Part shown: one piece after another, positions 3,704 to 61,200 of the stretch
Layout of the letters: the number at the start of each line of letters is the position of its first letter
How positions within the stretch are numbered: position 1 is the stretch's first letter
IMG/VR virus record: IMGVR_UViG_3300033153_004222
Coordinates: 1-64,000 of that record
Strand: one strand, 5' to 3'
Length of the DNA: 64,000 nucleotides
Source of the DNA: a virus
Translations under genes and position numbers: made by a program
The notes under the pieces: generated by a model
What the model was told of the DNA's origin: nothing
Database searches by the model: none
What the model saw: the letters and a program-made list of their open reading frames with translations, nothing else

Positions 3704-4537
3704 TTATTCTTGTTTACTTAACTCACCTAAATAAGTCTGATACCTCTGGCTTTCAATATCCTCCAGAGCCATTGCAGCTGCCATATCTACGATTTCCTGA
3801 TGCGTATGATCTGCTAATTCACAGTTCGTTGGCACAGTAATACTCATATTTACAGGTCGCTTTATGTATCTGAAAAAATAATTTTCCAGCTGAAAAGTAC
3901 CATCTGTGAGCAATTCTACATCCGATTCATACATAAGTCTTGGGACCTGGTTGGACCACGGCTTACTAAAAGGATCTATAATCACTCTGTTATAATCGTC
4001 ATGTTGGATTGGCCTTACACCAACTCTTTTGTTTTCTGCAACAACAAATTTTCCAGTTCCAGTATAGTCAAAAGTGCCTACATTGGTTTTGAAAGTTTCT
4101 CCTACAGAGTAAACAATAGCATTAAATGTAATTGTTCCTTTCGTAACGATATAAGTTGTTTGGTCTTCTAAATCACCCGAAGCAGGGGTAATAGGATTAC
4201 ATCCTGGAGCCCATAAACTTATTTCTTCATTAATCATAAACCAATAATTAGCAGGAACAGGAACAAAATAACCATGTTCTTTATTTTCTGCTGTTTGTGT
4301 TGTGGTTACAACTAATTGTCCATTTTGAACTACTTCTCTTAAATCATCCATTCTTTTTTGAGTTGCCTCAAAAGCGGCTCTTTTAAGATTAGAAGTTCCA
4401 TATCTTTGTTTTATAAACCTTTCCTGCGACATATTTAGAAGCTCATCTATTTCTTCCGGCTCAAAGTTAGGATAATTTAAAGTATCCAACTTGTCGGTTA
4501 AAATCTTAAATCTTATATGCATCTCCTGAATTGTCAT
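3704..4537 (-). CDS. Tail ring / head-tail connector protein (crAss-like)
   Basis: N-terminal MTIQEMHIRFK..DK...PNFEPEEIDELLN and C-terminal CELADHTHQEIVDMA typical of crAss ring proteins. Confidence 0.7.
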   Translation of the reverse strand: MTIQEMHIRFKILTDKLDTLNYPNFEPEEIDELLNMSQERFIKQRYGTSNLKRAAFEATQKRMDDLREVVQNGQLVVTTTQTAENKEHGYFVPVPANYWFMINEEISLWAPGCNPITPASGDLEDQTTYIVTKGTITFNAIVYSVGETFKTNVGTFDYTGTGKFVVAENKRVGVRPIQHDDYNRVIIDPFSKPWSNQVPRLMYESDVELLTDGTFQLENYFFRYIKRPVNMSITVPTNCELADHTHQEIVDMAAAMALEDIESQRYQTYLGELSKQE

Positions 4538-5352
4538 TATGCAGAGGCTTCAAGTTTATTTTTTAAAGATATTAATAAATTTTGATTTTTAGGATCTTCT
4601 AAATACAATATCGTAGATTCTAAGTCATGTCCTATGACATCATCTCCTACTAAATAGTGTGTTCCACTTTTTCTAATTGCATTGATTCCTAACAGGTCTT
4701 CAATTAAAATTCTGGTTTTAAAATTAGGAAGACTTAATATTTTATTAAATTCTTCAGGATTGTCCTGAATAACTTTATCTACTTCATTTTCAATCATAGT
4801 AGCTGTCATATTATCTGCCCTTTTTCCCATAAGTTTTAATACATCTTTCATTTCAGATGTAGACATATTACCAAATTTAGAAAATGCTTGTCTACGAGCT
4901 TTAACAGAAGTATTTTCCTTCTTAGCGTCTTCCTCTGCATCATAGATAACATATTCGGCTTTAGGCCATTGATCTAATTCAGTTACAGAATTTGCTACCC
5001 GTCTGCTTTGCATACATACTTGGTAATCTAAAAAATCTTTTGGTTTTGATAAATCTAATGTTAAAGGTTTATCATGTATATGAATACAATATTCCATCCA
5101 ATATTGACTATAAGATGCTAAAGTTCCTGGATCTTCTCCAAGATCTACTTCAAGCTGTGATTGCTGACTTTTTGTTAATCCTGTATGAAAACCACCTCTA
5201 CCCTGATGAGTAGTAATAGTATCCTTACATTTAGGATAACGAGTAAATCCAGCCCAATTCTTTCTATCGATTGCTTGAATATTTATAGTTCTATTTTGAT
5301 ATAATGTTTCCACTTTTTCCTTTTTTTCCTTTTTCTCTTTTACTATTGCCAT
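4537..5352 (-). CDS. Conserved crAss-like protein immediately downstream of MCP
   Basis: Synteny with the MCP; LDLSKPKDFLDY motif; ATG at 5352 preferred over the ORF-track start at 5370. Confidence 0.65.
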   Translation of the reverse strand: MAIVKEKKEKKEKVETLYQNRTINIQAIDRKNWAGFTRYPKCKDTITTHQGRGGFHTGLTKSQQSQLEVDLGEDPGTLASYSQYWMEYCIHIHDKPLTLDLSKPKDFLDYQVCMQSRRVANSVTELDQWPKAEYVIYDAEEDAKKENTSVKARRQAFSKFGNMSTSEMKDVLKLMGKRADNMTATMIENEVDKVIQDNPEEFNKILSLPNFKTRILIEDLLGINAIRKSGTHYLVGDDVIGHDLESTILYLEDPKNQNLLISLKNKLEASA

Positions 5353-5377
5353 TTCTCTCTTTTTTAGCAAAGAATAT

Positions 5378-22083: not shown

Positions 22084-22252
22084 AGAAGAGCATATAACAA
22101 TGGCGATAGATGCCCTGGAAGAACAGGCTCGATGGTTGTCAGAAGGATATGCACCTCCTAATGAAGAAGATGTGGATAGATTAAAGGATATTCACGAAGC
22201 AATTAAATTTTTTAAACTTAAAAAAAGAAACTTATGGACAAGTATAAATTAG
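22058..22252 (+). CDS. Hypothetical protein
   Basis: 64-aa ORF in an overlapping gene chain. Confidence 0.55.
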   Translation: MTKTNWQIEEEHITMAIDALEEQARWLSEGYAPPNEEDVDRLKDIHEAIKFFKLKKRNLWTSIN

Positions 22253-22596
22253 AAGATGCCTATAAAAGAATAGGTAAATTAACAGTTGAATTAGATTCTT
22301 GCAAAGAAACTGAAGAAAAATTCAGAACCTGGTGGCTACAAAATGAAGCTAAAGTTAAAGAGATGCAGGAAGAACTGGAAAAGTATACAGATGCAAAGCC
22401 TCAATCTTTAATAGATAGAGTTATATCACAAATTTCACAAGATTTAGGAGAAATGGGTGAAGGTGATGAAAGTGTATGTTTATTATTACAACAGCTTCCT
22501 GAAGATGTATTAGAAGCATATTTACCTGAAATGGTAATCCCAACTAAGCAAGAAGAAGCAGCAGGTGCAGATTTTGATGTAGATAAACCGCTATAA
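22234..22596 (+). CDS. Hypothetical coiled-coil protein ending in an RNAP-like GADFDVDK motif
   Basis: 120-aa ORF; C-terminus EEAAGADFDVDKPL. Confidence 0.7.
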   Translation: MDKYKLEDAYKRIGKLTVELDSCKETEEKFRTWWLQNEAKVKEMQEELEKYTDAKPQSLIDRVISQISQDLGEMGEGDESVCLLLQQLPEDVLEAYLPEMVIPTKQEEAAGADFDVDKPL

Positions 22597-22597
22597 T

Positions 22598-23104: not shown

Positions 23105-23515
23105 ATGAGCAAACCTTACATCCACGCACGGAGTTCCGCTAAAAAATTTGGAGGAAAATGGGAAGATTATATAGAAATACATGAGCTATTAGATAGCTCT
23201 AAAGCTGCAATAGCAGATAACAGGCATAGAGTTTTAACTCATAACTCCTGGTTTATAAGCTATATACTACCTAAAATATTTGGAGAAACTTTCAGGAGAA
23301 AGTCAGATAACCAAGTAATTTCAACCAGAGAAATAGCAGAACAACATGTACTTGAAGATTATAGAATGAGATTCATTCCAACTGCACAAGATTTTATTGA
23401 ACATATGGATTATGTTGGATGGATGCAAAATGGAATAGCAGGATCTCCAGCAAGTGCAAAGAAATTAAATTTTAAAACTTCTAAAAAGCGTGTGAAGGTT
23501 TTAAATTTAGATTGA
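23105..23515 (+). CDS. DUF6915-like His-rich protein
   Basis: PYIHARSSAKKFGG..EDY..IH..LDSSK...DNRHRVLTH...IAEQHVLED pattern. Confidence 0.75.
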   Translation: MSKPYIHARSSAKKFGGKWEDYIEIHELLDSSKAAIADNRHRVLTHNSWFISYILPKIFGETFRRKSDNQVISTREIAEQHVLEDYRMRFIPTAQDFIEHMDYVGWMQNGIAGSPASAKKLNFKTSKKRVKVLNLD

Positions 23516-35681: not shown

Positions 35682-36347
35682 ATGGCAACATTAATTCAAA
35701 TTTTAGGTGAATCTGGATCAGGTAAAACTTATTCAATGCGGAACTTAGAGCCAAAGGAAACTCTTTATATCAATTGCGATAAAAAGAATATGCCTTTTCG
35801 TGGCTGGAGAGCTAAATTCTGCACAGAGAATAAGAATTATGTGGTAACTTCTGATATAAATATGATTTATACGTTATTGAAGAAGGTACATGCAGATCAA
35901 CCTCAAATTAAAGTGGTAGTAATAGACACTCTAAATTCTATTATGTCAGATAAAGAAATGTCTGAAAGGAAGAAAAAAGGATATGATAAATGGATGGACT
36001 TAGCAGGTGATATCTATGATTTATATCGTATGATTTCAACTTTAAGAGAAGACTTATCTGTATTTTGTTTAGCCCATACCGAAGATTTTACCGGTAAGGA
36101 TGGTTTAGGAAGACAAAGGTTAAAAACCAATGGTGCAAAATTAACCAAGCTAAATGTAGAAGGATTATCAACTTATACTTTATATACCTCTGTAATAAGA
36201 GGAGAGGAAGGGGTAAGTTACAAATTCTTAGTTCAAAATGATGGATCAAATACAGCAAGAAGTCCTGAAGGAGTTTTTGAAGATATACTGATTCCAAATG
36301 ATTTGGACAAAGTTGTAAGTAATATTCAAGAATACGAGAATGCGTAA
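35682..36347 (+). CDS. AAA_24 / Sak4-like ATPase (recombination or annealing)
   Basis: GESGSGKT, VVVIDT, LAH, NTARSPEG. Confidence 0.8.
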   Translation: MATLIQILGESGSGKTYSMRNLEPKETLYINCDKKNMPFRGWRAKFCTENKNYVVTSDINMIYTLLKKVHADQPQIKVVVIDTLNSIMSDKEMSERKKKGYDKWMDLAGDIYDLYRMISTLREDLSVFCLAHTEDFTGKDGLGRQRLKTNGAKLTKLNVEGLSTYTLYTSVIRGEEGVSYKFLVQNDGSNTARSPEGVFEDILIPNDLDKVVSNIQEYENA

Positions 36348-36377: not shown

Positions 36378-36965
36378 ATGTATAAATTAGATCAAAATGT
36401 TTCTGAAGAAAGCGGAGGAAACTATTTTAATGTAGGCATTTATGAAAATGTAAGCCTAAAAGAAATTACATTAGAGGAGGCAAGTAATGGTAATCCATTT
36501 TTAAAGTTCCACTTTGAAGGAGAAAATGGAGAAAAATTAAGCCATACTGAATGGCCTATAGCGGCTGATGATCAGAATTTTGAAAAGAAACTTAAAAACT
36601 TTCTAATCAGAATAAAACATATCAGTACAAAATTTGTTCCTGTAGAAAGTGTGGACATAAATGCTCCTGACTTTGATGCGTTTGCAAATAAAGTTATTGA
36701 GCTATTAACACCACATTTGCCTAACAATAAAGTTAGGATTAAATTGGTATATAATTATAGGAACTATGTTTCTCTTCCAAAATATGTTCCATTTATTGAA
36801 AAAATGGTAGTAGCTAAAACTGCATCAAGATTAAAACTTGATCCAGGATTTGATAAATTGGAAAAGGATGAAGGAACTGATCCTGTATTATCTACAGCAA
36901 ACGAAACACTCGTTTCTCCAACAAGTGGAACAACTGAAAGTTCGGAAGATGTTCTTCCGTTTTAG
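36378..36965 (+). CDS. Putative single-stranded DNA-binding protein
   Basis: Follows the Sak4-like gene; acidic tail ending EDVLPF. Confidence 0.65.
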   Translation: MYKLDQNVSEESGGNYFNVGIYENVSLKEITLEEASNGNPFLKFHFEGENGEKLSHTEWPIAADDQNFEKKLKNFLIRIKHISTKFVPVESVDINAPDFDAFANKVIELLTPHLPNNKVRIKLVYNYRNYVSLPKYVPFIEKMVVAKTASRLKLDPGFDKLEKDEGTDPVLSTANETLVSPTSGTTESSEDVLPF

Positions 36966-37042: not shown

Positions 37043-38092
37043 ATGTATAATATGAATGAACTATTGACATTTGATAGCCTCCTTAAAAAAGTAGAACCAT
37101 ATCAAATATTTGCTTATTACATAGGAAAAGACATCAAACTCAATAAAGTACTTCAAAGTCCCTTAAGAAAGGACAAAAAGCCAAGTTTTAGTATTCATAT
37201 TTCCAGAACCGGATATATGTATTATAATGATTGGGCAACTGGAGATTGGGGAGGTGCTATTCAATTTGTAATGAAGCTTTTAAATTTATCTGATATGTAT
37301 TCAGCTGCAGCTCAAATTAACTCTGATATGAATGCAGGGTTACTTGATGATAGGATGGACACAAATGGTAATATAGAGTATAAAGGATTTAAAACTCATT
37401 TCAAACAAGAAGAAATAGAAAAAATTGCTAAGAATACAGCAAGTGATGTTAAAATTTCTGTTAGAAGATGGGAAAAAAATGATTTAAAATATTGGGCAAG
37501 TTTTGGAATTACAGAACGAATATTAACATATTATAATGTTTTTCCTTGTCAAAGAGTATTTTTAAATAAAATGGTGATATATGTTAATAATCCCAGAGTA
37601 TTTAAACCTGCTTATGCCTATGCATTTTATAAAGATAGTGAGTATACTTATAAGATTTATCAGCCAATGAACCCAGATTATAAATGGACATCCAATGTGG
37701 ATTTTTCTGTTTTACAAGGATGGGATCAAATGCCTGAAACACATAAAGTATTAATACTTACCAAATCTTTGAAAGATGTAATGACTTTAAGGTCATTAGG
37801 AATTCCTGCATTAGCAACTCAAGGAGAGCTAATGGGTGTAAAACCGCATATATATCAACAACTAAAAGAACGATTTAAAGAAATTTATTTGTTATTTGAT
37901 TTTGATTATGGTGGAGTTAAAGGAACTCAAAAACTAAGAAAACTTATACCAGAATTAAAATTCTTTTTTATACAGAATTTAAGTCATAGAACTGATGGAT
38001 TTAAAGATATAAGTGATTTTAGAGTAGAGCATACATCAAAGGAATGTTTAGATCATTTGAGAAAATGTTTAGTTAACTGGAATAAAAAATAG
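37043..38092 (+). CDS. DNA primase (TOPRIM, crAss-like)
   Basis: SPLRKDKKPSF, TKSLKDVM, LLFDFDYGG, KDISD. Confidence 0.8.
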   Translation: MYNMNELLTFDSLLKKVEPYQIFAYYIGKDIKLNKVLQSPLRKDKKPSFSIHISRTGYMYYNDWATGDWGGAIQFVMKLLNLSDMYSAAAQINSDMNAGLLDDRMDTNGNIEYKGFKTHFKQEEIEKIAKNTASDVKISVRRWEKNDLKYWASFGITERILTYYNVFPCQRVFLNKMVIYVNNPRVFKPAYAYAFYKDSEYTYKIYQPMNPDYKWTSNVDFSVLQGWDQMPETHKVLILTKSLKDVMTLRSLGIPALATQGELMGVKPHIYQQLKERFKEIYLLFDFDYGGVKGTQKLRKLIPELKFFFIQNLSHRTDGFKDISDFRVEHTSKECLDHLRKCLVNWNKK

Positions 38093-48200: not shown

Positions 48201-49255
48201 TCTTTAGAAAGTTTTTTAACATCTGCTTTTCTAAATATAGATTTAAATCTTTCCCAGGCCCGTTTGATAGTATTTAATAATGTTTTAGGCTGCTCATTCT
48301 TAAAATTAGTTATAAGAGCCTGTCCAATTAGCTTTCCTACTGTTTCAGCGATATATTTATCCTCATTATCTTTATACAGATGAGCATAATCTTTTTTTAC
48401 TTTAGTATAAGTGTCTGTTTTAACAGCTAAACTCCTCATTCTCTTTACTAAAGGATTATCTTTTCCCAAAAGTTCATAGATAAAGTGTCCTGCTTCTTCA
48501 GGGATAGTTGTAAGATCTGCTTTTCCTTGCGAGATCATTATAATTTTATTTGTGATATCAGCTACTCCGGCTGCATCTACGCCCATTTTCTCCTTTAAGG
48601 AAGCGTATGCCTCTATTGTAACACCAAAAGGGCTTAGAAAGGCTATAAGACGGTTTTCTAATTCAATTTCTCGCTCATTAATCGCCTGTTGTCGTATAGG
48701 ATGGACAATATCATTCTCAGAATTCAGATCAATAGCTGTTCTAACTTGACTGTCTGAATGAATATTTAATTCTTTAAATCCTTTTAATGCAATGTCTATA
48801 CCTTTTTGATGTAGTTTGTCTGCAAATGCTACTCGTTGTCCTCTTGTAGGAACAGTCTTTATCCCAAGATCAGCGGCAACAGCCTTATTAAATTCTATTA
48901 TATTATCATAAACTTGAATATTCTCAGAATTAACAAATACAGGAGTAACATTCCCAAATTTTTCTGCATAGGATTTATCATTAGTAAAGTATATTCCTTC
49001 TCCTATTTTTGCAGCTCCTCTATTTCTCTTATAATTGTACCTATCTATTCCTGTATCTTCCCCTCTGTACATAACCAGAGCTTCTCCATTTTCATCTACA
49101 ACCTTTGTTTTACCAAATTCTTTTTCAAATGTAGGAGTCTTGGTTACTACCCAAGTCTTTAAAGCCTCAGCTTGTCCATAATCTTTTTCTAAAGAACTAA
49201 ATATTTTAGAATCTTTTCCGTTAGGTGCTTTTACAAAATCTACTTTACAAGCCAT
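45251..49255 (-). CDS. Large virion cargo protein with N-terminal ART-PolyVal-like domain
   Basis: FEKEFGKTKVVDENGEALVMYRG...GEGIYFT...YAEKFG; peptidase-like PEEAGH; hydrophobic C-terminal helices; adjacent to the RNAP gene. Confidence 0.7.
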   Translation of the reverse strand: MACKVDFVKAPNGKDSKIFSSLEKDYGQAEALKTWVVTKTPTFEKEFGKTKVVDENGEALVMYRGEDTGIDRYNYKRNRGAAKIGEGIYFTNDKSYAEKFGNVTPVFVNSENIQVYDNIIEFNKAVAADLGIKTVPTRGQRVAFADKLHQKGIDIALKGFKELNIHSDSQVRTAIDLNSENDIVHPIRQQAINEREIELENRLIAFLSPFGVTIEAYASLKEKMGVDAAGVADITNKIIMISQGKADLTTIPEEAGHFIYELLGKDNPLVKRMRSLAVKTDTYTKVKKDYAHLYKDNEDKYIAETVGKLIGQALITNFKNEQPKTLLNTIKRAWERFKSIFRKADVKKLSKEVRAVYGELASNILNGDATGLSANNMTDTVYYQQTETPDIEDDAEIIKKEQTEEKEEEKTEEEAPQAEIKEEISNIQDVIIDTKNSIELKIKAIERSGKRGDPKVAKIIENLKYMNVLLDGKEKNLAMLNFLGKAQTDLLFVRKKFKSLLAAMEAGDEIDAKELLRYKRYVEIYNIDFIRALLDEIKESEEFKTVIAPEKQMMFKAGFDNLINTINADFKKIGRPLLAKVLQKLNANTDLTEADIESQLEKGLTDTNSFTRWVETLAESSDQIIALGAKMVNEQKEKGRLETNRFEDELYAKINAFEKFRANQGIRIGDPKALYDIFYAKDDKGETDGRLINYDTALKKFGKDSKEFEYYEYFTQTYYKLQKKLPYQFNRGLNLPSIRARAHERVAGKQGIIRVLGEEIKDATTLQADDVGFGEPGTEKQVRDHRFVPVLYHAQIGEKKGMIPPGELSYDLGNSLSAFGAMAINNSQMNTIAAELEILRDLLSNRQVAKTTGGLINTVKGKKHGTPMQRADTMQGNETNGYKQFDMYMDMVFYGMRKDSSEIQIGNKRFVKTKLADALNKYSSMRTLAFNLFSGISNVTMGKTMNFVEAHAGQHFDKKTFISAQKTYLGSMMGFLSDINHKTPKSKLGQLVRLYDGLQEYDEYGTPITGNKLWKRLLNTNAMFFMQKGGEHEIQVTLMIAFLKGKMVKTKSGKEIKLFDAYQQDKNGKLVLSDDVVDYTEEQLIKDSQKIKQVSQKLHGVYNSQDLINAQYVWAGRLAILFRKWLYPSIKRRWGSTRFNQRLESYEEGNYLTVFKFFRNVFKNHKANQVGWVAAYNDTKGGLKDWQKQNIRRSYAEGTIMLGITILIGMLAGLDDEDDERNWVENMVLFQLHRLNAEMKMYMPWNIKEALQILKSPSASMSTVEHIARTVGSIFGMGTSLITEGDIPRYTRDTGLYDEGDAKIWKQFDESIPMWKEIRAMTAPENRLKWMLWK

Positions 49256-52200
49256 TATTCATTACATTTTATTTGTGAATCTCCATCTTCTTGTGCTTTT
49301 TTCATAGCATCTGTAAATTCTTTACTTCCTCTTACTTCTAACTCATCCATATCATCTCCTAAATTTATATTTGTTTCTCCCTGTTCATAAGAAATCTGTT
49401 CCTCAACAGTTTTATTAACAATATTATTATCTGTGGCTACAATATTTGTATTATCTCCAGGAGTAGTTACAGTAGGATCAGGTGAACCAGCTGTAGGTTT
49501 AGCAGGAGGTCCTGATGTATCTACATCCGTGTTATCAGGATGAATTGATTCTGGATTGATTTCCTCTGGATAAACTTCAAAGAATTTATTTTGTTCTCCT
49601 AAAGCATCCATATGAGTATAATGTGCAAAAGCATTTTTAGAAGTTGCTCCTCCTCCTTCTAACAATTTTCTATATCCTCTACGTTTCTTAGAATTTTTAT
49701 CCCACATAGTTACAACTTGTGGAAAACCATTTATAGCACTTCCTTTTTTTCCTTGAACGAAAAGATTTGAATCTTCTCCTACAGAGAATGTTTCTATAAA
49801 ATGCCTTTTGCTTTTAGTATATCCCATAGTAATAGGAGAAACTTGATCAGCTCTAACTTTTTTAATTAGTTTAGGATCGCTAATTCTATTTCTTAGTATT
49901 TGCATAAGAAGTTCCGGTACAGCTAATGCTTCTATTTTTTTATCTTCTTCAATAGCTTTTCTATCTCTTCCTTCTGAATCTTGTTCTTCTAAAGATAAAT
50001 ACCCCCAGCCGTGTGAATCTCTTCCTGCTAAATAAGGAAAGTAAGTTTTAAATGATCCTTCATTTAAATCTTTTAAAAATTTTGATAAACTGGCTGTTGT
50101 ATTTCCTGCAATATCTTCTCCAAGACTTTTCCATATAATAAGAGGTATTAGATCTACAAAAGAATTAGGTCCAGATTGAAAACCAGAAGTTCGTATTGAA
50201 TAATCTACTAAGTTTGTCATTACTTTTTTGACATGCTCTACTGCTTTTTGCTTTTCTGCTGCATTTAATCTTATATGCTTCCCTGATTTAGAATCCCATT
50301 TTACATTAACATTTCTTTCTGTATGATAAAATAATTCATAAAAGGCATCTACAAATGCAGATTTAGTTTCTTGTGTATAAGAAGCTGCATTGTTGAATCG
50401 TACCATTTGAAACTTGTTACTACCATTATAAATATCTCCTGATAAATATTTTAGAAGTTTATTCTCCCCTAAATTATATAAGTACTTTATATTGGTTAAG
50501 TCTTGTGCTACTGTTTGATTTGATTCTCCTTCTTTTGGTTTAAATAATTTCTTTTTACTTTCTTCTTTTGTTCTTTGATTCATAAGGGCTGCAACTGGAG
50601 ATCCTTGTGTGAACATTATAAAAGAATAGATATCCGAATTCATTCTTTCTATTAATTTTTTATCATTAAATGTCCCATTTTTCTGATGAGTCATTTCTGC
50701 CAAGAATTTTTTTGCTCTTAAAAAGAAATCAGAATTATAAGGCATAAATTCAGATATAACTTCTTCTGCTCCTAAAATAGCATGTTCATAATAAGCATTT
50801 AGTCTTGGAGAACTTGAAGGTCCTACAGGTTGCTTTGTAACTGCATCTTTAGCTGGATATACTCCTTTTACAGTTATATTAGCTTCTCCAGACTCTACAA
50901 AGTTTTTATTATTTAACCATAGCTCTATATCAGATAGCCCACTCATTGCTGTAAATCTATCAGGAGCTAACATTTTATTAGATTTAGCTAAATCAGATCC
51001 CATATCCCAATACTTAACAAAGTCCATTAAAACTTGTTTTTGGAATTGAAGCCCTGGGACTTGACCATGTTTTCCAGCTCCAGTTATGCCGCTACTACCT
51101 GGCTCCTCTTCAGCCATTTCAGATATATCTTTTCCTAAAGATTTTCTTAAACCTTCTGGTGTTATTTTTATTCTATTTTCTTCTGCAGCTCCATATTGAA
51201 TCTTCTTACCATTAGGTCCTTTAGTTGGCAAATTTAATTCTGCTGCCATTCTATTAGCAGTTTCAGAGGGAGTATATGCATGTTCATCTAATGCAAATCT
51301 CTTTTTAAGTTCTCTTATTACAGGTTGATTTATAAAATCAGTAGCTATACTATTATTTATTCCCAGCCTATTGAACATAGCTACTATATTAGCAGTAAAT
51401 GTATTTATATTTAAACTACCTGTAATTGGATCTTTTGCATTATCAAGAGAAGCATTTAAATCTTCATTTAAATATAAAGATCGTAGCTCTCCATCAAATC
51501 CATATATTCCACTTAAATCTCTTATTGGATTTTCTTTAGTTCCAATAGTTACTCCCTCACCATTATCCATTTCTATAAATACTCCTTTTTTAGGATCTGT
51601 TATTTGAATGTCAATATCTTGGGATAGTGCATGGGCTACAGAATGATTAGCAAATATTCCTACTAATACTTTAGCATCTTTGTTTACAGATTCTAAATAG
51701 ACATCTGTATAAGCAGAGTTAAAGTTGAAAGTTCCGGTATCTTGAAGCATTCCTGGTATTTCACCATACTCCTTCATTTTATTTTTATAAGTATCTGTAT
51801 CTAAAGGATTTATAACATCAGGTGCATGATTTTTAGATGTTAGTATCCCAAATCTTATAGAGAATAATACATTTTGAATTTCTTTATCAGTTAAAGAGCT
51901 AACATCAATTTTTCCATCTTTTAAGGCTTCTATTTTATCTGCAACAGGAACTTTTTGAAAAGTATTTTCTCCTGTTTCCTCTAAAGCAGGATAAAATAGA
52001 TTTAATTTATCAACATCAAAGTCAGCTCCAGTTTGAGTAGTTATATCAGCTGGTAATACAATCTGTCCTTTAGCGGTTGGGGGAAGAACCTTTTTAATTA
52101 TTAAAGGAAGCATTGAACTTTTTCCTTGAGTTGGAATACGATATCCTACTAATTCAAGAACCGACTTATCCATTCCTGCTCTTTCCATAGCTTGATAATC

Positions 52201-55200
52201 CACAACTCCTGTTTCAGAATTTACATACTCTAATAAACCAAGTTTATTGGCTTGTTGGTAGGAAATAGCTACTTCTGCTGCTTTTAGTCTTCCATCTTCA
52301 AATCTATAATACCCAAGATCATTTGTTTCATCTAATCCATATTCTGCTACCTGGACAGCAGAATCTCCTGGCATTCTTTGTGTCATTACTCTTGCTTTGA
52401 ATATAGACGCTAATGCTATCTCAAATTTCTTTGCATAAGCAGGAAAAGAAAGGGGCATTGCAAATTGTATCTCTCCTTCTATTTTTTCAATTTCTAAAGC
52501 AAGACTGTAATTATCTGGAAGTTCTCTGGACTCTATCTGCTCTAAGAGAAGTTTTTGAATTTTCTTCAAAAAGTTTAAAGCTATATCTGGATCATTAGGA
52601 TTGTTTTTAAATTCATTCCATCCTAACTCTTTAGATAATTTATCAGCAGTTCTTTTTATTTTTTCTACATATACAAGATCGTTTACATTTTTTATATCCT
52701 CAGTTAAAAGCTCTTTAATTCCTTCTATACTATCGTAGATAGCACCTGGAACCATATCTGCTGTTATTAATTTTACTATTTGAGAACCATCTTTAGGATT
52801 CATTCCTTTTTCTGCTGGTAAAACAAATGGACTTCTTTCATTATCAGATTGAAGAACATGAACTTCCATGTTTTCTAACTCTGCACTTGATTTATTGTTA
52901 TATTTTGTTACTCCACTTTTTCCTACTTTTACAGCTGACTCTAAATTAACAGCATCAATTTTTGTTAATCCTTTATCTGCAAACTCTCCAGTTGTTTCCA
53001 TTCTTCGTCTAAGCTTATCTAATTCAGGATTAGTTTTAGTAAAAGCAGGATACAAAGGAACGGTTGAATGTTTTATTTGTGTAAATACAACTTGCTGAAG
53101 AGTTTCATCAAAGTGATATCCAAAAGAAAATGTTTTTAAAGGTTTAAGAGCTAACTTTTGAGCCCATTCAGGCCATGTATTGGGATCGGATTCTTTAGTC
53201 CAATATTCATTATAAGCTACTTCATGGCTATGTTCTCCTTCTGTTGTCCATTCTCCTCTTCCTTCCATAGTTTTCTTATGGGCCTCCAGAGTTGTGTATC
53301 CTTGTGCATCTGATTTATTACTGCCTCTTCTGTAAGGGAGAACTATTTTAACTGCTTTTCTTTCAGCGACAGGAAGTGCTTTAAAGAAAGCATCTAATTT
53401 TTTTTCTAATTTTTTCTTCTTGGTCTTATCAGTTTCCTCATTTATTTTTTCTTCTAAAGCTTCAATATGTTTAATAACATTTTTAGCTCCTGTAACTCCT
53501 AAAGCTCCTTCCCAAGATGGATTTTTAGTAAAACCAATTGCTAAATTGGCGGCTCTATTTAAGGACATTTTAGAATAAATATCCTCTATTATGGCCATTC
53601 TTATCTCTTTAGTTTTTCCATAATCATCTTGAGAATTAGAATCTAAAGCCATTTGTGATACCATATGGTCTAAGCCAGGAGTAATGGATTGATATGCCCT
53701 CTTACCTGCATCTACAACTACACTCACAAATTTTCCTTTGGCTCCTGGAAATTCATCATTTTTAGAAATATCTTTCTCTGTAGATTTATAATAAGCCAGA
53801 TCTCCATTTTCATATTTGCTGAACTCAGTTCTCCATACAAGATCATTGAGTAAAAATTCAGTCATAGCATCATCAACATCTGACACTACAATAGGATTTT
53901 CCTCTGTTCCTATATTAGTAGTAGAACTTGAAAATTTATCAGGTGATATTTCATCAGAATAAAATTTTCCATCATGCTCTACTAAAACTCCATCTGCAAC
54001 CATAGCTCGTTTGCTTCTCAAAGTTTCTCGTTCCATAAAAGCATCTAAAGCTTTATCTACAGCAGTTAATTCTGTTTTATTAAAGAATTTTACATTACCA
54101 TCAGAATCAAATAAGTTATAATTAGTAAAATTTAAATCAGGAATAGACATAAATTTTAATCCGTTTGCCGCCTCTCTATTCAGAGTGCCGTCAGGATTTT
54201 TTCCTTTATAATGGTAGTTTTCTTTAAGCTTACTATCCGGTAAAGCATTTTCACCAAACAATTGTGAATGAACTCTTGATATTCTTGCCCTTTCTTGTAG
54301 AACATTTCTTCTTAATACAGCTTTTGCTGCATTTTTAACTCCTTGAATCTCTCCTATTAAACCTCCTGTTGCATTAAGCTGTGGTACTTTATTTTTGTTA
54401 CTTGCTAATAAAGGAACTCTTATATAAAGAGAACGCCCCTTATCTGATTTAGTTCCAGTATTTATAAGTCCGTATCCTGTATTTTTATAATGACCATTAT
54501 TTCTGTAAAAATTTAACCTTGTTAACCAGGTTTGTTTAGGTGTCATTTTATCATAGGTAATAGCTTCATCACCTCTTTCCAATTTTGTACTATCTAATTC
54601 TATTAGGGCAAACTCTTCCCTTACTTTATTAATACCATTAGAATCTTTAAAATCAAGTAGTAATGAAAATAGCATTGACCTGGCAACTCCGGTATCATCA
54701 GGATTATAATATACATCTCTATTAAATGTTTCCCATATTTTTTCGACTCCTTCTTTGGTAGCCATCTCTGAAGAAAGCTTAGATAGATAAGAATTTAGAT
54801 TTATAGAATAAACCAATTTGCCCTCACCATTAGTGAAAGAACCTGTGTATAAATCACTACTAACATCTTGAACTAACTGAGCTATCTTTTTAAAATTCTT
54901 AGTTTGACCTTTAGCTCCTGTAGTAGTATAAGGATTACTTCCTTTTGAAATTTGTTTATTAGAAGGATTATACCCCAATTCTTTTAGTATATGAGAAAAT
55001 TTTCCTTCAACTACTGTTTTTTGAAACTCTGAAGGAGGATACGTAGTTTCAAACATCTTTAGAACATTGGGTTCAAATTCAATTCCAATATGTTTAAAAA
55101 CTCTGTTTACATGTTTATAATATTCAGTAGGATTCTTGATATGAGAAAATAGGTCTTGATATTGTTTTCCTAAATTAGAAAGTACAGCTGAATTTATAGA

Positions 55201-58200
55201 ACCATCTGCATTAAATAGTCCGAGAATATTTCTATTAGTATTCCATCTTTCTACAATTTGCTTTTGTACATCTTGTCTATTTGTTTCAATGAGTTCCCAA
55301 GCTCCATTTTTATCTACTACAGCTGTCATAAATTTTAACTGTGTCTTAGAAAAATTAGAACGAAAGGCTGTCTTAGTTCTACTATCCCAGGTTAAATATT
55401 TTTGATATACAGCCGATATAGAGCTTTTCCATTGAGCCAATTCTTTTAATCTTTCTTCAATTTGATGTGGTTGGTATCCAGCTAATTTACTTGCAAGGTC
55501 TGCATAGACTTCATCAAAATTTAAAAAAGAAGGAAGTCCAGTAAACTTACTTTTACCATCATCTATAATTTTTTTATTACTATCTCTAATTACTGGTTTC
55601 TGTATAAAACTTAAAGCAGTTTTAACTTGCCAGGACATTGTTTTTTTAGGGCTGGAGTAAAAATAGTTTTCACCATGTATCCTTTCTTTACTATTAGTAG
55701 AAGGATCTCCATCATCATCAACAGTAGGAATTCCAAGCTCTAATGCTTCTTTTTCTATCTTTTCAAATTTATCTACTGTCCATCCTTCTTTAGATTGTGC
55801 AAGAGTTATAGCAACACCATGTTTCCGCAAAGAATTTAAAAGAAGTCCTTTAAAGCCAGGATTCTGAACTACTCCTCCTTTATTTATATCAAGCCATGCC
55901 CCTTTAGAGTTTTCTATAGCTCTATGAACATTCTTTCTTTTTATTTTAGAATTATATACAGAGGTTTCAGATCCAGACTTTCCTTCATTCTTTTGTATGA
56001 ATTTATCTAAAACTTCAACATAATTCTGCATTGTTTCTCGCAAGTTTTCTATTCCTTGCATTAAATCTTTTGTATATTCTCTCTTACTTAAAATATCCTC
56101 AACACTTTGAGCTTTACTTGTTCCATCAGCTATCATTTTAGGAAGAACTTTGGTTACTAAACCAAATCGAAGTGATTCTACCATACCATCTTTTTCTGCA
56201 TTAGACCATTCAGGTTTACTCCTTAACATAGCATCGTTAGGATTAAACTTTTCACTCTTCATTTTAGCTTTAGTAGCATCTGATATTTTAAAATCTCCTA
56301 CTTTAATTTTAAGAAACATTCTTTCCATTGTCATAGAAGAAAGATATATTGAATCTGGATTAAGAATAGTAGTACCATAAATTCTAATAGCTAAGATGGC
56401 TTTTCTTATTCTATCAAATATCTTCTGAATAATTCTTCCTAATTTAGTCTTCTTTATTCTTCCTTTAGATTCCTCTGCCTCCATGAACTCTCTGAATAGT
56501 TCAGCAGCTTTTTCCTCAAAAAAGATTTCTTCTAACTCTGCTTTAGTTTTTTTAGGATATAATTTTTTAAGAGCGTCTTCTTCGGCAAGAGAAAAAGTAC
56601 CGTATTTTTCTTGCATTGCTCTAAAGACCTGTTTCTTTTCTTGTTCAGTTGTAGCAAGATCCATTACTACATGGAAAGATTCGTGATATGCTGTTCCTTT
56701 AGCTCCTAAACGAGCAAGTAATACTAATCCATTTGAATAGGCCCCGTAAGCCTGTCTGCCGCCCTTCATTTGAATATATTTGGCATTAGCCATAGGAAGT
56801 ATATGATCCGGTCCAAAAGTTCTTACAATCCAATCTACTTCAGCTTCAGTTAAAATATTACCTGGATTCTCTTGAAATTTATTTTCTACTTCTAAAGAGG
56901 CTTCTCTCCATTTTATATCTGGACTATCATCTTCTCCCTCTTTAAGTTCATTTCCTTCTATATCAGTATTTTCTACAGTAGCATTTTCTTCTGAGTTCTC
57001 ATCAACTTTTATTCCTGGTTTTTCAACTTCTGAATGAGAATCTCCTTCACCTTCTACAACCTGTTGATTTTTCTTTATTTCTTCTCCAACTGTATCTGTT
57101 TCAGATTGAACTGTAGCTACATTATCATTAGTTACAGAATCAGATTTTTGAATAGGAACTAATTTAACTTTAGAATCTGTAAATTTTTGTCCAGGTGCAA
57201 CATCTGTAGTTACAAGCCCAGGAACACCATCTACTTCTTTATCAGATAAATATTCTGTATAGGAACTATACTCTTTTCCAGTTGTGTAATCTTTAACTGG
57301 TCCATTTTCTATTACTTTTTCCTTACTAACTTGATAACTTTTTCCCATTATAGCCTCTATCAAATTTTCTCTAAAAGCATTTATTGCTGATTCCATTAAG
57401 AGTTTATCCTCTGAAGTAGCTCCAAGTGTGGCATTTCCTCCACCTATCCATTCTCTTTTTACAAAAGCTTTTCCATTAGGATCTACTCCCATTACTTGTT
57501 CCCCGTAGTTTCCTTCGGGTGAGTTTTCTAAACTTTGAAATATACGTACATGATATGCTTGAGAGCCAGGTACAGCTTGTTTTGGATCAATAGGATTTCC
57601 TGCTTCATCTTCTAATCCCAAAGCTTTTCGTAAATTATTATGTTTGCCTCTATTTTGATGATCTACCCCTATTATTTGATTACCTACTTTTATTTTAATA
57701 GCACTATTATCTACATAGAAAAGAGGGGCTTTTGGATTTTCAGATTTAGATATATTATGCCCTGCTTTAGTTGCTATTAAATCTTCTATTATTGCCTTTT
57801 TTTGTTCTCCGTCTAACTTAGGATTTAAAAGAATATTATCTATTACTGATTCAGCATTGGCTCTTGAAATAGTTTTTGTTTCCAGCCTAACCGGAACAAT
57901 TGCCCCATTAGCAGATGGAATCATAGCATATAATCTTCCTCTTTCAGACATTGCATCCATACTTTCCCAAGTATTAGTTTCTCTATTCCAAAAAAGAACT
58001 GCTCCGCCACCTTCTCTTGTACTTGCTTTTCCTACTCCAATTGAAAAATCTTCTCCTATAACCCCTAAATCACTAAGAGGAAGTTTAGCAGATTCTCCCT
58101 TTATTTTTGTATTCATTACAAATCCACGGTTCTTATTCTCTACAAACATTTCAACATTTCCATCTTCATCTACGTAAGTATCCCAATTCATTCTTAGATC

Positions 58201-61200
58201 AAAATCTCCAGCTGCAAGTTTTTGTAAAGGTTTACTTACATTTCCATCTTTATCTATTGTGTGGATTGTAATAGGATCTTGTTGTAAAACTTTTCCTTCT
58301 TCTGGAACATATAAAGGATTTCCAGTTTTAGGATGTTTATATTCTCCTTTTCTAAGAACTACCTTAGAGCCTTTTGTGGCCACTAAAGGATCAACCCATT
58401 GTTCAAAATCAATAACTTGTTCTTCTAATATAACATCATCAGGATTTTCATTAACCATATATAAAGCATCTCCTTCTAAAGTTCCACTTAATAAAGGAGT
58501 TAAATCTCCTGGTTTTCTATTATGAAGGAATTTTTCCATTCCTCTTACATTCTTTGTTACAGGAACTCCTGTTTTCGGATCTATCTTAATAGGATACCAA
58601 TAAATAGGAGTAACTTCTCCTGATTCTATTTTTTCTGCAAGATTTTTTATTTTATGTTTTGGAACTATCTTATACTTAGTCGCTGGTTTTTTTATAGGAT
58701 TACCGTCTTCATCTAAGCCTCTTACATATAAAGATTCTTGATTAGTATATCGTAAAAGATTTGGAGTTGAAGCTGATCTGACATCTTTTGCTTCTAATGT
58801 TATTTGAAGGAATTGAGTATTTACACTACCTACTGCATCTTCTGATATATCATACTGAGGATTAGTAGTTCGTACTACTCCATCTTCTTGCATAGTGTCT
58901 TGAGGATCTGTAGGATTAGCAGGATCTACTTCTACTTCCTCGTCTTCTTCTAAGGTAGGATCATTTTTTAGATCTGAACTTTCTTGAGAATCTTGAAGAA
59001 CTATAACAGTTTCAGTACTTATTCCCCCACCTTCATCTGTTTGACTTTCTTCTGCTTCTTTTTGTATATCTAATTGTTTTTGATCTCTTTCTTTCTGATT
59101 ATCTTCCCATTCTTTTAATTCATCCAATCTTTGATTTACAAGAGATTTATCCTGTGCTTTTAGATCATCTGCATCTTCTAAAGGCTGTACTCCTGCTAAA
59201 AATTCTTCTGATGTTTCTGCTTCTTCTAAAACTTGTAAAAGTCTTTCATTAAAATCTTGTTTCATTTGCTCAGTAAGAGCAGCAAGAGTTTCATTTGGAG
59301 GACCAGGATCTTCTGTTGTAGGAGTTTCATCTGCTGGATCAAGAGATTCATATATAGCTTTCCCATCTTTATCATACCCTGTTAAAATTCTTCCTCCTTG
59401 TATAACCGGTGCTTCATCTTTTTCAGGAGGAGTTTCTTCTGGTTTTCCATCCCAAGAATCAACAAGTTTTTCAAGAGTAGTAATTTCAGCTGCCAATTCA
59501 TCAGTCATTTCACTATCAGGAAGTTCATATAGATTTTCTAACCTATCTAAAGCTAATTTAATACCATCAGGAGCTTTGTTATAATCATATCCTTTTTTCT
59601 TTCCTCCTTTTTTCTTTCCTTTTTCCTCTAACTTTTCAGTTACATCAGGAGGAAGACCTAACTCTTCTCTTAATTTATTGGCCTGTTCCTTTATATTGGC
59701 TTGAATATCAGCATTAATTTTATTTGCTTCCTGTCTAAGGGCTTCTTGTCTTGCCCTTGTTTCAGCTTCTTTTAGTTTTAAACCTAAACGATCTAATATT
59801 TCAAGTCGTGCTGTTCTATCTGGATGATTAGATAGAGCTACACTTCTTCTAAATTGCTCAAAAGTATTTCTATCAAACTTTCCAGCTTGAATAGCTTTAT
59901 GAAGTGTTTCTTCATATGCCTTTCTTCCCCTCCCAATTCTTTCTGTCTTTTGATCAAATTTCTTTCTTTGTCCTTTACTAAAATTATCTTTAAGTAATTC
60001 TCTATAACTTTTATTTCCTTTTAATCTTTGTTTGTTAATTTTATCAAAATTCTTATTTAGGATACTTTTTATTTTCATGGCTGTTCCTATAGTTTCATTC
60101 TCTATAGCCAATTCAACATCAGTTTTAGCATTATCCTCTGCAGATAATAAAGAGCGTTCTTCAGATATATCAGCATCTTGCTCCTGGATAGCTGCTTTTA
60201 TTTCTTTTAAAGCTTTCTTTTGTTCATAATTGTATATTCTATTACTAATAGCAGTATTTCTTACTTGTCTATTTTTACCAACAATACCTGCCATATCATT
60301 CCAGGTTCCTTCCATCTCCTCTATAAACTCAACAGCTTCTTGTGCTCTTTTTTGTGCTCCTTCATCTAATCCTTTGGCTTCTCGCTGTTCTTCAGTCATA
60401 TCAGCAAATCTCTTGTAAGAATTTACTAAATGACCTGTAGTCCCATCATTTAATGACATTACAGTTTGATCCCATAAACTTTGTTTAGCTAAGTTTTGTG
60501 CCTCTAATTTAAGTTTATCTACCTCTTCTTCAGATGCCCCTTCTGATATAGCTTTATTTATTTTTTCTTGAACTTCTGATTGAGCATCCATATGAGCTTG
60601 AAGAGCTGCTCCTTTCATAAAAGTAGTAGAAAGATTAGATTGATTAATGTTATCAAACATTTGATCTATCTCTTGTATACGCTGTTCTTGTTTTGCATAT
60701 TGAGCCTCTTCTTTTGCAGCGGCCCCTGTCATTTGTTTTATAGCTTTAGTACCAGCATATTGACCAAATCCTCCTACAGCTCCTAATACTCCTGCTTCCC
60801 AAAAATGAGGATCTTTGACATGCCTTCCCATCGTTCTTTTATTGGTAAGAGCTTCAAAAATATTATCATCATTTACACCTGTAATAGCTTTACTTCCTGA
60901 TGCTCCTGCAATAAAGTTTATTTGTTCTTCTGCAAATTCTTGTCCAGTTTCAAGACCTGCTACTTTAAGCCCTTCTTTAGACCAAAAATTTGTATAAGGT
61001 TTTATTTTTTCTCTGGATGCAAGTACAGAATTTCTACCTGCCCTGGTAAACATACTTGCACTTACAAGATTCAAGGCTATATTGGCCCTGTTTATATTAA
61101 CTACATCAGATGCATCTGCAGCCGCTTTGGCTTTAGCTTCTGATTCAGATGCCCCTAAAGATTTATATAATAGTATATTATCTCTATAAACAGTTCCTGC

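Follow-up and report, generated by a model that had tools for sequence, protein, structure and literature searches.

The tip of the Escherichia coli SSB reads ...DFDDDIPF; its terminal hydrophobic-Pro-Phe carboxylate is the defining feature of SSB-tip binding in this species, and the tips hang from a tetramer. In phage T7, the acidic C-terminal tails of gp2.5 and gp4 dock on the T7 DNA polymerase. The catalytic loop of the cellular RNA polymerase (RNAP) β′ subunit reads DFDGD. According to one study, 17 partner proteins or more are recruited by the SSB tip (PMC10018359). The C-terminal residues of N4SSB activate the host RNAP through β′ (PMC4496689); a short C-terminal peptide here contacts an RNAP subunit and so controls the transcription programme in a phage that injects a virion RNAP, a parallel to the crAss-like phages, although N4SSB binds ssDNA, its phage belongs to an unrelated family and the analogy is one of mechanism only. 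The reference for the crAss-like virion enzymes is gp66 of phage phi14:2, with the loop GSDFDIDK (PDB 6VR4). The gp66 preprint describes DxDxD as the metal-binding core of the RNAP loop and states that crAss-like phages entrust the host RNAP with middle and late transcription. In the self-inhibited structure reported there, a domain formed by residues 196-233 contacts the DFDID loop, the stated contact being one hydrogen bond, so a loop-binding partner exists in principle.

The locus described here lies in a window of 64,000 nucleotides, positions 1 to 64,000 of the IMG/VR virus record IMGVR_UViG_3300033153_004222. It encodes a small acidic protein, P0001, which we tentatively read as a coiled-coil protein with a docking peptide of the SSB-tip class, a plausible view that falls short of being probable. 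The gene and its parts are the following.

22234-22596, plus strand: gene of P0001, a 120-aa acidic protein (translation; pI 4.3)
22240-22389, plus strand: N-terminal long helix, residues 3-52 (AF2 block with pLDDT 77-94; invariant D8, A9, I13, G14, L16, K24, K29, W33, L35 and E47)
22402-22521, plus strand: optional helical mini-domain, residues 57-96, ...LLQQLPEDVLEAYLPE (AF2 helices 57-71, 78-85 and 90-96; deleted in P0006-P0008)
22531-22593, plus strand: disordered acidic C-terminal tail, residues 100-120 (pLDDT < 50 at 100-116 and 118-120)
22564-22587, plus strand: motif GADFDVDK, residues 111-118 (G111, D113, F114, D115 and D117 invariant across the family)

The C-terminus of P0001 reads ...AAGADFDVDKPL, and the translation of 22234-22596 closes with ...VIPTKQEEAAGADFDVDKPL at the stop. 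The protein has no Pfam or PHROG family match and no OB fold. Its AF2 model (pTM 0.35) consists of helices followed by the tail, with no strands; the DFDVD core stops three residues before the C-terminus, in a tail whose pLDDT falls below 50 from residue 100, which confirms the flexible location that a preliminary description had given the motif. The N-terminal helix, which the model suggests is probably a coiled coil, is a module common to long and short family members. The mini-domain has a stand-alone homologue in another crAss-like genome (L240:1444-1674, E 4.7e-5). A promoter and terminator scan around the gene gave signal at or below shuffle level. The listed public sequencing runs include no RNA run, and since every run's share is 0.25 or less, no habitat is claimed.

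The same genome carries a second GADFDVDK, in its virion RNA polymerase.

49255-62100, minus strand: virion RNA polymerase gene, P0003, 4281 aa (PDB 6VR4 match, E 1.7e-22; 766 homologues at E <= 0.001)
52006-52029, minus strand: polymerase catalytic loop GADFDVDK, residues 3358-3365 (aligns to gp66 DFDID; G3358, D3360, D3362, D3364 and K3365 invariant in 26 aligned polymerases)

This large ORF is a crAss-type virion RNAP that matches phi14:2 gp66, its DFDVD aligned to DFDID; the loop stands in the context ...IVLPADITTQTGADFDVDKLNLF, with TGADFDVDKL. A six-frame translation of the window contains no DFD[VIL]D string besides this GADFDVDK pair. Re-reading both ORFs upheld the 8/8 residue match between tail and loop that had been reported, together with its interpretation as a likeness at the protein level: 20 of 24 nucleotides are identical, with synonymous differences in four of the eight codons, and 5.15 +/- 1.25 identical codons are expected from independent choice under the codon usage of this genome. 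Codon identity is thus no higher than independent choice would give, and there is no sign of a DNA copy. The P0001 motif shares the G-[AS]-DFD-[VI]-D-K pattern of the RNAP loop, but it sits on the disordered tail of a helical protein (AF2) and is not embedded in a double-psi β-barrel.

A search of 1.84 billion representatives and 5.8 billion clusters, about 15 billion proteins, yielded homologues of P0001 at 99, 48 and 37% identity and three short forms (P0006-P0008), on contigs of 712, 4213, 1531, 809 and 1076 nt. In the short forms the whole middle domain is gone, while the helix and the tail are retained. All members have a pI of 4.3-4.6. The string G-x-DFD-x-D is kept in six of six distinct members, short forms included, and the linker before it differs in length and sequence. 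Together, the kept motif, the variable linker and the retention of the tail in forms that have lost the domain indicate that the tail is under selection; the conservation among homologues to which the preliminary description had looked is therefore present. The family pattern is G-[ASD]-DFD-[VIA]-D-[KI], with V, I and A at position 4 of DFDxD in one, two and three of the six distinct tails, and K or, as in SSB, I following the core in three members each. PG occurs at or just before the motif in 5/6 distinct members: three have it immediately ahead of the -1 residue, and in P0005 and P0007 AAG comes after it. P0004 holds a repeated unit, NFDID...ADFDID. Only P0001/P0002 and P0004 (2/6 distinct members) end in KPL-COOH; in P0005-P0008 a further 7-10 residues follow the DFDxD core (up to 10 in P0005, P0007 and P0008), with ends reading ...NDNLD or ...PGVIE.

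Protein and alignment searches of IMG/VR, JGI metagenomes, GTDB genomes, INPHARED phages and 46 crAss-like IMG/VR records gave no further member, and the ESM Atlas gave scores of 0.86 or lower only. Several candidates were set aside: a tblastn match at 24% identity in phage cr11_1 sits within a 13-kb ORF, the sole GTDB "relative", matched via the motif, is a crAss-type polymerase whose contig had been assigned to a Chloroflexia MAG, and none of the 47 stretches from an IMG/VR scan for DFDADIK is a polymerase or a family member. The last scan also brought up an unrelated small family ending WYSTDFDADIKKAKK, in phages of about 68 kb that show no crAss-type polymerase loop. Positions 22480-22597 are also spanned by a diverged 247-nt contig from one public run (depth 2.6), which departs from the window by 17 differences and 4 gaps; among the differences listed, all fall at 22527-22567, the last turning GADFD into GSDFD. 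This contig lends weak support to the SSB-tip reading of P0001.

If the tail were a copy tuned to the phage's own polymerase, as had been proposed, the two would be expected to vary together. Among 120 polymerase homologues, position 4 is V in 93 and I in 27, and A in none; the gp66 preprint likewise gives V or I in all crAss-like RNAPs, with no A. The polymerase rule is Gly in cellular enzymes and Val/Ile in crAss-like ones, yet A occupies this position in half of the distinct tails, that of P0001 having V. DYD replaces DFD in 7 of the 8 closest relatives of the vRNAP (P0010-P0016), the closest one excepted, and every tail has DFD. Five other crAss-like genomes hold a second DFDxD in a tail-like setting, and in none of the five does its position 4 agree with that of the genome's own polymerase. 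These figures do not support the proposal of a tuned copy: tail and polymerase appear to vary independently when judged, indirectly, against 120 polymerases and five surrogate genomes, the homologues themselves lying on contigs of 712-4213 nt. From sequence comparison, the motif appears to behave as a portable docking motif rather than as a tuned polymerase copy.

Second copies in other crAss-like genomes, also suggested for scrutiny earlier, do occur. Outside the polymerase, G[SA]DFD[VI]DK is found in 2 of 46 genomes, against about 0.0015 expected from composition, once in the interior of a 253-aa protein and once in a protein encoded beside the capsid gene, within its N-terminal tail. The codons of these copies differ from those of the polymerase copy, which means that it is the peptide that is conserved. 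Of the 26 non-polymerase DFDxD strings, 4 have G[SA] in front of them (binomial P 9e-5). As a plain DNA pattern, extra DFDxD is not enriched (26 versus 67 for a reversed-pattern control in the 46 records). In two genomes, G[SA]DFDxD lies in acidic tails ending in SSB-like tips: a 423-aa protein of G023 has ...NGSDFDIDL... and ends DDIPDFF, and a 185-aa protein of G044, encoded after a Sak4-like annealing gene plus one ORF and before the primase, has ...VPGSDFDADV... and ends EDEMPFFND. The latter was rejected as a family homologue, aligning over the 12-residue motif only. Variable N-terminal tails of a capsid-adjacent phrog_16383-like protein hold xFDxD strings (APDFDIDE, VPDFDTDN, LNFDVDD and AGSDFDIDKK) in 4 of the 13 crAss-like genomes that have it. 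The carriers of xFDxD and DFDxD tails are mutually unrelated proteins. The occurrence of G[SA]DFDxD on unrelated carriers resembles that of the T7 gp2.5 and gp4 tails, where several proteins bear one acidic aromatic-ended tail for a common hub; the T7 tails differ in sequence and belong to another phage family.

An IMG/VR scan for PGADFDxD returned two PF00436 SSBs, ending KPGADFDDDIPF (L283) and PPGADFDDDVPMGR (L294). P0004 ends TPGADFDIDKPL, that is P-G-A-D-F-D-x-D-x-P-hydrophobic-COOH at the extreme C-terminus, and agrees with the SSB at 9 of 11 positions by reading; the phage SSB end ...PGADFDDDIPF is closer to the homologue tail ...PGADFDIDKPL than the polymerase loop is. P0001 has in common with SSB tips a C-terminal peptide that is acidic and disordered and is built around a (P)G-A-DFD-x-D core, and both P0001 and P0004 share the Pro-hydrophobic-COOH end at equal distance from the core. 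The P0001 tail would likewise hang from a domain that probably oligomerises, as the tips do from a tetramer. There are also differences. P0001 has neither an OB fold nor PF00436; family position 4 is V, I or A, never acidic, against Asp in the SSBs; K stands in place of I/L before Pro, and Leu rather than Phe closes the chain. Four of the six family members lack the Pro-hydrophobic end, and the terminal hydrophobic-Pro-Phe carboxylate is absent from the P0001 family, which reaches KPL-COOH at best.

PF00436 was found neither in this genome nor in any of 47 crAss-like genomes searched. One ORF of the window offers a comparator.

36378-36965, plus strand: ORF of 195 aa, possible non-canonical SSB, ending ...ESSEDVLPF (between the Sak4-like annealing protein and the primase)

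This ORF has no family match, and the G044 protein described above, tried as its homologue, shows no homology to it; its position and end make it a possible non-canonical SSB of this phage. The [G/N][A/S]DFDxD strings of RNAP loops and SSB-type tips are easily confused in sequence scans.

The account of P0001 that we tentatively favour joins these observations as follows. A helix of about 50 residues, an optional mini-domain and a tail bearing the short acidic peptide (P)G[AS]DFD[VIA]D[KI] make up the protein. The helix would oligomerise, probably as a coiled coil, and the peptide, which is classed with the acidic tips of SSB C-termini, would dock in a pocket, basic or hydrophobic, on a partner enzyme. 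Proteins of replication, recombination and repair that read SSB-type tips are candidates for this partner, as is RNA polymerase in the manner of N4SSB, and P0001 may be an adaptor or a competing decoy. The 8/8 identity to the polymerase loop would then be a by-product of the [G/N][A/S]DFDxD shared by SSB tips and RNAP loops. Against this account, V, I or A at position 4 and the K after the motif in 3/6 members both fit the polymerase loop better, and the phage's own SSB-like tail, ...EDVLPF, differs from ...DVDKPL. Nor does a likeness to SSB explain why the complete 8-mer turns up outside the polymerase in other crAss-like genomes.

The tail is functional and not a product of chance. Across the 81,287-bp genome, whose 77 ORFs total 25,208 aa, no 8-mer except GADFDVDK is shared between proteins, and 6.4e-6 further copies of it are expected by chance. 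Some 8-mer is shared in 5.3% of 300 per-protein shuffles and very many windows were surveyed, which is what can be said for a coincidental match with a functionless tail; the motif, however, is invariant in homologues as distant as 37% identity and in forms that have lost a domain, although the linker next to it is free to vary, so that coincidence is scarcely credible and the caveat of a chance match attached to the original observation carries little weight. It is very improbable, too, that the tail is the relic of a captured polymerase gene fragment, owing its likeness to shared ancestry and not to function. V[IL]P lies at an equal offset upstream of the motif in P0001 and the polymerase, hhalign of the family against the polymerase gives E 2e-5 with the motif included, and in a BLASTP comparison P0001 matches the crAss-type polymerase on the MAG contig along residues 41-118 (E 2e-6). 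When the motif is left out, however, the profile comparison drops to a non-significant E of 0.18. The extended likeness (the V[IL]P offset, IPTK, LP...YLP) was accordingly rejected; it belongs to the separate mini-domain, which is helical in AF2 and stands alone elsewhere, whereas the matching polymerase stretch is described in the gp66 preprint as part of a β-barrel domain. Short family members moreover have the tail without the upstream stretch, and the codons of the two copies agree no more than by chance.

Mimicry of the polymerase loop G[SA]DFD[VI]DK, by which the tail would engage the loop-contacting Cleft-blocking domain, a host factor or a sensor and serve as a switch or decoy, is unlikely, though less so than the other alternatives. 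Beyond the unique 8-mer identity, the family pattern and that of the polymerase, G-[SA]-D[FY]D-[VI]-DK, overlap throughout, the extra copies with their different codons exceed expectation, and alongside the hhalign result with the motif, the family profile matches the polymerases of three genomes (E 0.005-0.02 per genome). The lack of tracking at position 4 (agreement in 0/5 genomes) and at DYD speaks against it, as do the lack of significant likeness beyond the motif, the outcome of the reversed-pattern control, and the PG prefix, C-terminal position and ...PL-COOH end, none of which is a polymerase feature; in addition, a folded barrel buries the catalytic loop, and one hydrogen bond is the only blocking-domain contact that the preprint states. 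A Gre/DksA-type secondary-channel factor was considered as a mechanistic analogy and rejected, the motif lying on a disordered tail and not at a hairpin tip, with no family match. In a broader form, which we consider doubtful, crAss-like phages would place copies of the loop on flexible tails of unrelated proteins, the carriers being P0001, the capsid-adjacent N-terminal tail and tails of replication-module proteins. The target of these copies would be the Cleft-blocking domain or a host factor encountering the loop during ejection, when the polymerase is unfolded, and the copies would govern the switch from the packaged self-inhibited enzyme to the active one, or act as decoys. Alternatively, and with no great likelihood, the tail may be a lineage-specific acidic motif for another partner or ligand, through DxDxD metal binding or nucleic-acid mimicry, with convergence accounting for the resemblance. 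The metal-binding role of DxDxD in the RNAP loop, as the preprint describes it, the xFDxD strings in phrog_16383-like tails, the repeated unit of P0004 and the unrelatedness of the carriers are consistent with such a motif; it leaves the G[AS] prefix and the K/I suffix unexplained, and short flexible DxDxD peptides would be expected to bind metal weakly.

The literature consulted contained no report, for crAss-like phages, of a second loop copy or a tip-only mimic of SSB. If P0001 did mimic the loop, this would make it the first mimic of a catalytic loop to control a virion polymerase, and a handle on the activation and silencing of the crAss-like enzyme, which the gp66 preprint leaves open. 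If instead the SSB-tip reading favoured here is true, P0001 would be a tip-only relative of SSB tails, carried by a small oligomeric protein in a phage without a canonical SSB, and could hijack or block the enzymes that read SSB tips, or contact RNA polymerase as N4SSB does.

P0001 is a 120-residue acidic protein translated from the ORF at 22234-22596 (+), and its C-terminal end is ...VIPTKQEEAAGADFDVDKPL. A second copy of its GADFDVDK occupies residues 3358-3365 (nt 52029-52006, minus strand) of a 4281-residue ORF (P0003) that matches gp66 of crAss-like phage phi14:2 (PDB 6VR4, E 1.7e-22) and is a virion RNA polymerase of the crAss type. In the alignment its DFDVD falls on DFDID, the gp66 catalytic motif, every Asp of which is required for activity according to the gp66 preprint. 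The virus record is 81,287 bp long with terminal repeats, and the window is its first 64 kb. The label "early" for P0001 is a presumption from its position in a plus-strand block, which begins near 16.4 kb where the coding strand switches.

The polymerase ORF and the neighbours of the P0001 gene
21412-22083, plus strand: Mom-like DNA modification protein (PF25680, E 4.8e-27), upstream neighbour
23105-23515, plus strand: DUF6915 protein (E 2.4e-35), downstream neighbour
49255-62100, minus strand: 4281-residue virion RNA polymerase, crAss-type, match to PDB 6VR4

Translation and the alignment to gp66 confirm the 8/8 residue match between the P0001 C-terminus and the catalytic loop reported in the preliminary description, and its placing of that match at the protein level also holds. 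The two copies are identical at 20/24 nucleotides, four codons differing synonymously, and independent choice under this genome's usage predicts 5.15 +/- 1.25 identical codons of 8; codon identity thus gives no sign beyond independent choice, and nothing indicates a DNA copy. GADFDVDK is the sole 8-mer common to any two of the 77 ORFs of the genome. About 5% of shuffled proteomes contain some shared 8-mer, while the expectation for GADFDVDK itself is 6e-6. Far upstream of the polymerase module, P0003 also contains a HExxH zincin-like string (..TxYHEAFH.., ~1803-1810), whose T1803, Y1805, H1806, E1807, F1809 and H1810 are nearly invariant in 26 aligned virion polymerases.

For the P0001 family, searching 1.84 billion representatives in full with HMMER returned three proteins, and a profile run against 5.8 billion clusters returned six; the homologues lie on contigs of 712-4213 nt. 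IMG/VR, JGI metagenomes, GTDB genomes, INPHARED and 46 crAss-like IMG/VR records yielded no further member.

C-terminal tails of the P0001 family
P0001/P0002: ...AAGADFDVDKPL
P0004, 48% identity: ...NFDIDTPGADFDIDKPL
P0005, 37% identity: ...EPGAAGDDFDADIKKEINDNLD
P0006, short form, 85 residues: ...EEPGADFDIDKAVDPGVIE
P0007, short form, 82 residues: ...EPGAAGSDFDADIKKDINDNLD
P0008, short form, 81 residues: ...SPGSDFDADIKKEINDNLD

The short forms retain the N-terminal helix and the tail, the middle ~45 residues being entirely missing, and every member has a pI of 4.3-4.6. G111, D113, F114, D115 and D117 are invariant in the family alignment, while the preceding linker varies in length and sequence. 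The tail is therefore conserved, as G-x-DFD-x-D in 6/6 distinct members; the gene is real, and its tail is a short linear motif under selection. AlphaFold2, run on the family alignment, predicts a helix at 3-52, three short helices within 57-96 and a C-terminal stretch, starting at residue 100, whose pLDDT stays under 50, in keeping with the flexible tail proposed earlier. The middle helical part has a stand-alone homologue (...ELLEHLPKKNLLGYLPEE...) in another crAss-like genome, G031, where a small ORF (L240:1444-1674 (+), ...DPIVEAVIEQMRKDFEMDDVTAIYELLEHLPKKNLLGYLPEEIAEQLEK, E 4.7e-5) carries neither the helix nor the DFDxD tail; the family is therefore modular, with this part an independent module. 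A diverged 247-nt contig from public run X5 (depth 2.6) spans the linker and tail at 22480-22597. Among the differences listed, all lie in the linker (22527-22559) except 22567 G>T, which would convert GADFD to GSDFD.

A likeness of the tail to SSB tips emerged from a PGADFDxD scan of IMG/VR: its 44 stretches are mostly chance frames in GC-rich contigs, and two are PF00436 SSB proteins terminating in KPGADFDDDIPF and PPGADFDDDVPMGR. The E. coli SSB tip is DFDDDIPF. The end of P0004, TPGADFDIDKPL, has the same P, G, A, D, F, D, D and P as an SSB tip, and its last residue is hydrophobic, at the SSB tip's distance from the core. The E. coli tip has at least 17 protein partners, which it recruits (PMC10018359). 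Two other crAss-like genomes carry the motif in acidic tails whose ends also resemble SSB tips: a 423-residue protein of G023 (...NGSDFDIDL..., VPFDIDADDD and NFDLDF, ending in DDIPDFF) and a 185-residue protein of G044 (...VPGSDFDADV..., ending in EDEMPFFND). The gene of the latter directly follows a Sak4-like annealing gene and is separated from the primase gene by a 327-residue ORF. The present phage has a protein with an SSB-tip-like C-terminus in the slot between its Sak4-like gene and its primase.

The annealing-primase region
35682-36347: Sak4-like annealing protein
36378-36965, plus strand: 195-residue ORF ending in ...ESSEDVLPF, no family match
37043-38092: primase

No homology is detectable between this 195-residue protein and the G044 protein, and a search of encoded proteins found no PF00436 SSB in this genome or in the 46 other crAss-like records. 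The P0001 family also departs from SSB tips, since a Pro-hydrophobic C-terminus occurs in only 2/6 distinct members and position 4 (the x of DFDxD) is never acidic; the K that follows the motif in 3/6 is left unexplained by the SSB reading.

So is the recurrence of the full 8-mer. Copies of G[SA]DFD[VI]DK lie outside the polymerase in 2/46 crAss-like genomes against ~0.0015 expected from composition: as QGSDFDIDKQ within a 253-residue protein of G038, and as AGSDFDIDKK in G026, in the N-terminal tail of a phrog_16383-like protein whose gene adjoins the capsid gene. G[SA] precedes 4/26 non-polymerase DFDxD (binomial P 9e-5). These recurrence statistics take their composition from this phage, assume 30,000 residues in each genome and cover 46 records picked by size among those listed by one scan. 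The second copies use codons unlike those of the polymerase copies; it is thus the peptide, not the DNA, that recurs. The phrog_16383-like protein, encoded beside the major capsid gene, has a variable N-terminal tail, with AGSDFDIDKK, APDFDIDE, VPDFDTDN or LNFDVDD in 4/13 crAss-like genomes with a detectable homologue and no similar string in the rest, this phage's included.

The phrog_16383-like genes
L214:1116-2069, minus strand: G026
L216:1956-2984, plus strand: G038
L237: G015
L248: G025
window 4537-5370, minus strand: this phage, 277 residues (MAIVKEKKEKKEKVETLYQ...), without DFDxD-type string

This 277-residue protein shares the 7-mer DNMTATM with a 1141-residue protein downstream of the polymerase (62115-65540, minus strand), and the G038 homologue has DNMSTTM at that place.

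Whether the tail tracks the polymerase was approached by three indirect comparisons: with polymerase homologues, near relatives and surrogate crAss-like genomes. D[FY]D[VI]D is present in 120/120 polymerases (the best 120 of 766 homologues), with V at position 4 in 93, I in 27 and A in none, and the gp66 preprint describes I or V there in all crAss-like RNAPs; A occupies it in 3/6 distinct tails. Within the same 120, exact GADFDVDK is confined to this phage and, at 65% identity, the polymerase most closely related to its own. The seven relatives that rank after it have G[SA]DYDVDK; every P0001-family tail has DFD. The surrogates were 46 crAss-like records in IMG/VR, each 70 kb or longer, from 80 listed by a polymerase-motif scan. 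Their DNA gave 72 DFDxD matches (46 in polymerases, 26 elsewhere) and the reversed-pattern control 67, so that there is no general enrichment of extra copies. In 5/5 genomes with a second copy in a tail-like context, position 4 differs from that of the polymerase.

Position 4 in second copy and polymerase
G023: I, V
G026: I, V
G038: I, V
G044: A, I
G015: T, V

The co-variation with each phage's RNAP motif raised in the preliminary description thus fails in these indirect tests, which all agree; the family motif appears to vary on its own, and the 8/8 match would be one draw from it. In 12 of 80 IMG/VR loci (L074, L075, L081, L084, L086, L088, L090, L113, L116, L118, L121, L135), the polymerase frame around the catalytic loop spans 61-537 codons, stop to stop under table 11, which suggests stop-codon reassignment in these phages. 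A 496-kb contig assigned to a Chloroflexia MAG has at its end a crAss-type polymerase fragment (L051:9512-11890 (+), ...VTKAGSDFDIDKLNMY...), which reflects either a misjoined assembly or an atypical association with a host. An unrelated family of ~70-residue proteins ends in ...WYSTDFDADIKKAKK (L025:5356-5586, L037, L019, L007, L009); the only other DFDxD of its roughly 68-kb phages lies in an unrelated 269-residue ORF adjoining helicase-like and replication-type genes.

Our tentative preference is for P0001 as a coiled-coil scaffold that would present an acidic peptide for docking, in the same class as SSB tips, its polymerase likeness then following from the [G/N][A/S]DFDxD common to the two motif classes. 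Mimicry of the polymerase loop draws on the 8-mer recurring outside polymerases, but the tail does not track the polymerase and its context also speaks against this reading, which we consider unlikely. A partner that reads the catalytic loop is conceivable, since the gp66 Cleft-blocking domain contacts the DFDID loop in the self-inhibited state (gp66 preprint). It is rather improbable that the tail is an acidic or metal-binding motif particular to this lineage and directed at a different partner. Descent from a captured polymerase fragment is very improbable, the codons giving no indication of a copy, and pure chance is the least credible account of the match.

By analogy, N4SSB is a mechanistic precedent bridging the SSB-tip and polymerase-loop readings. 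Its C-terminal residues act through beta' to activate the RNA polymerase of the host (PMC4496689), and in crAss-like phages, too, the host polymerase takes over transcription in the middle and late stages (gp66 preprint).
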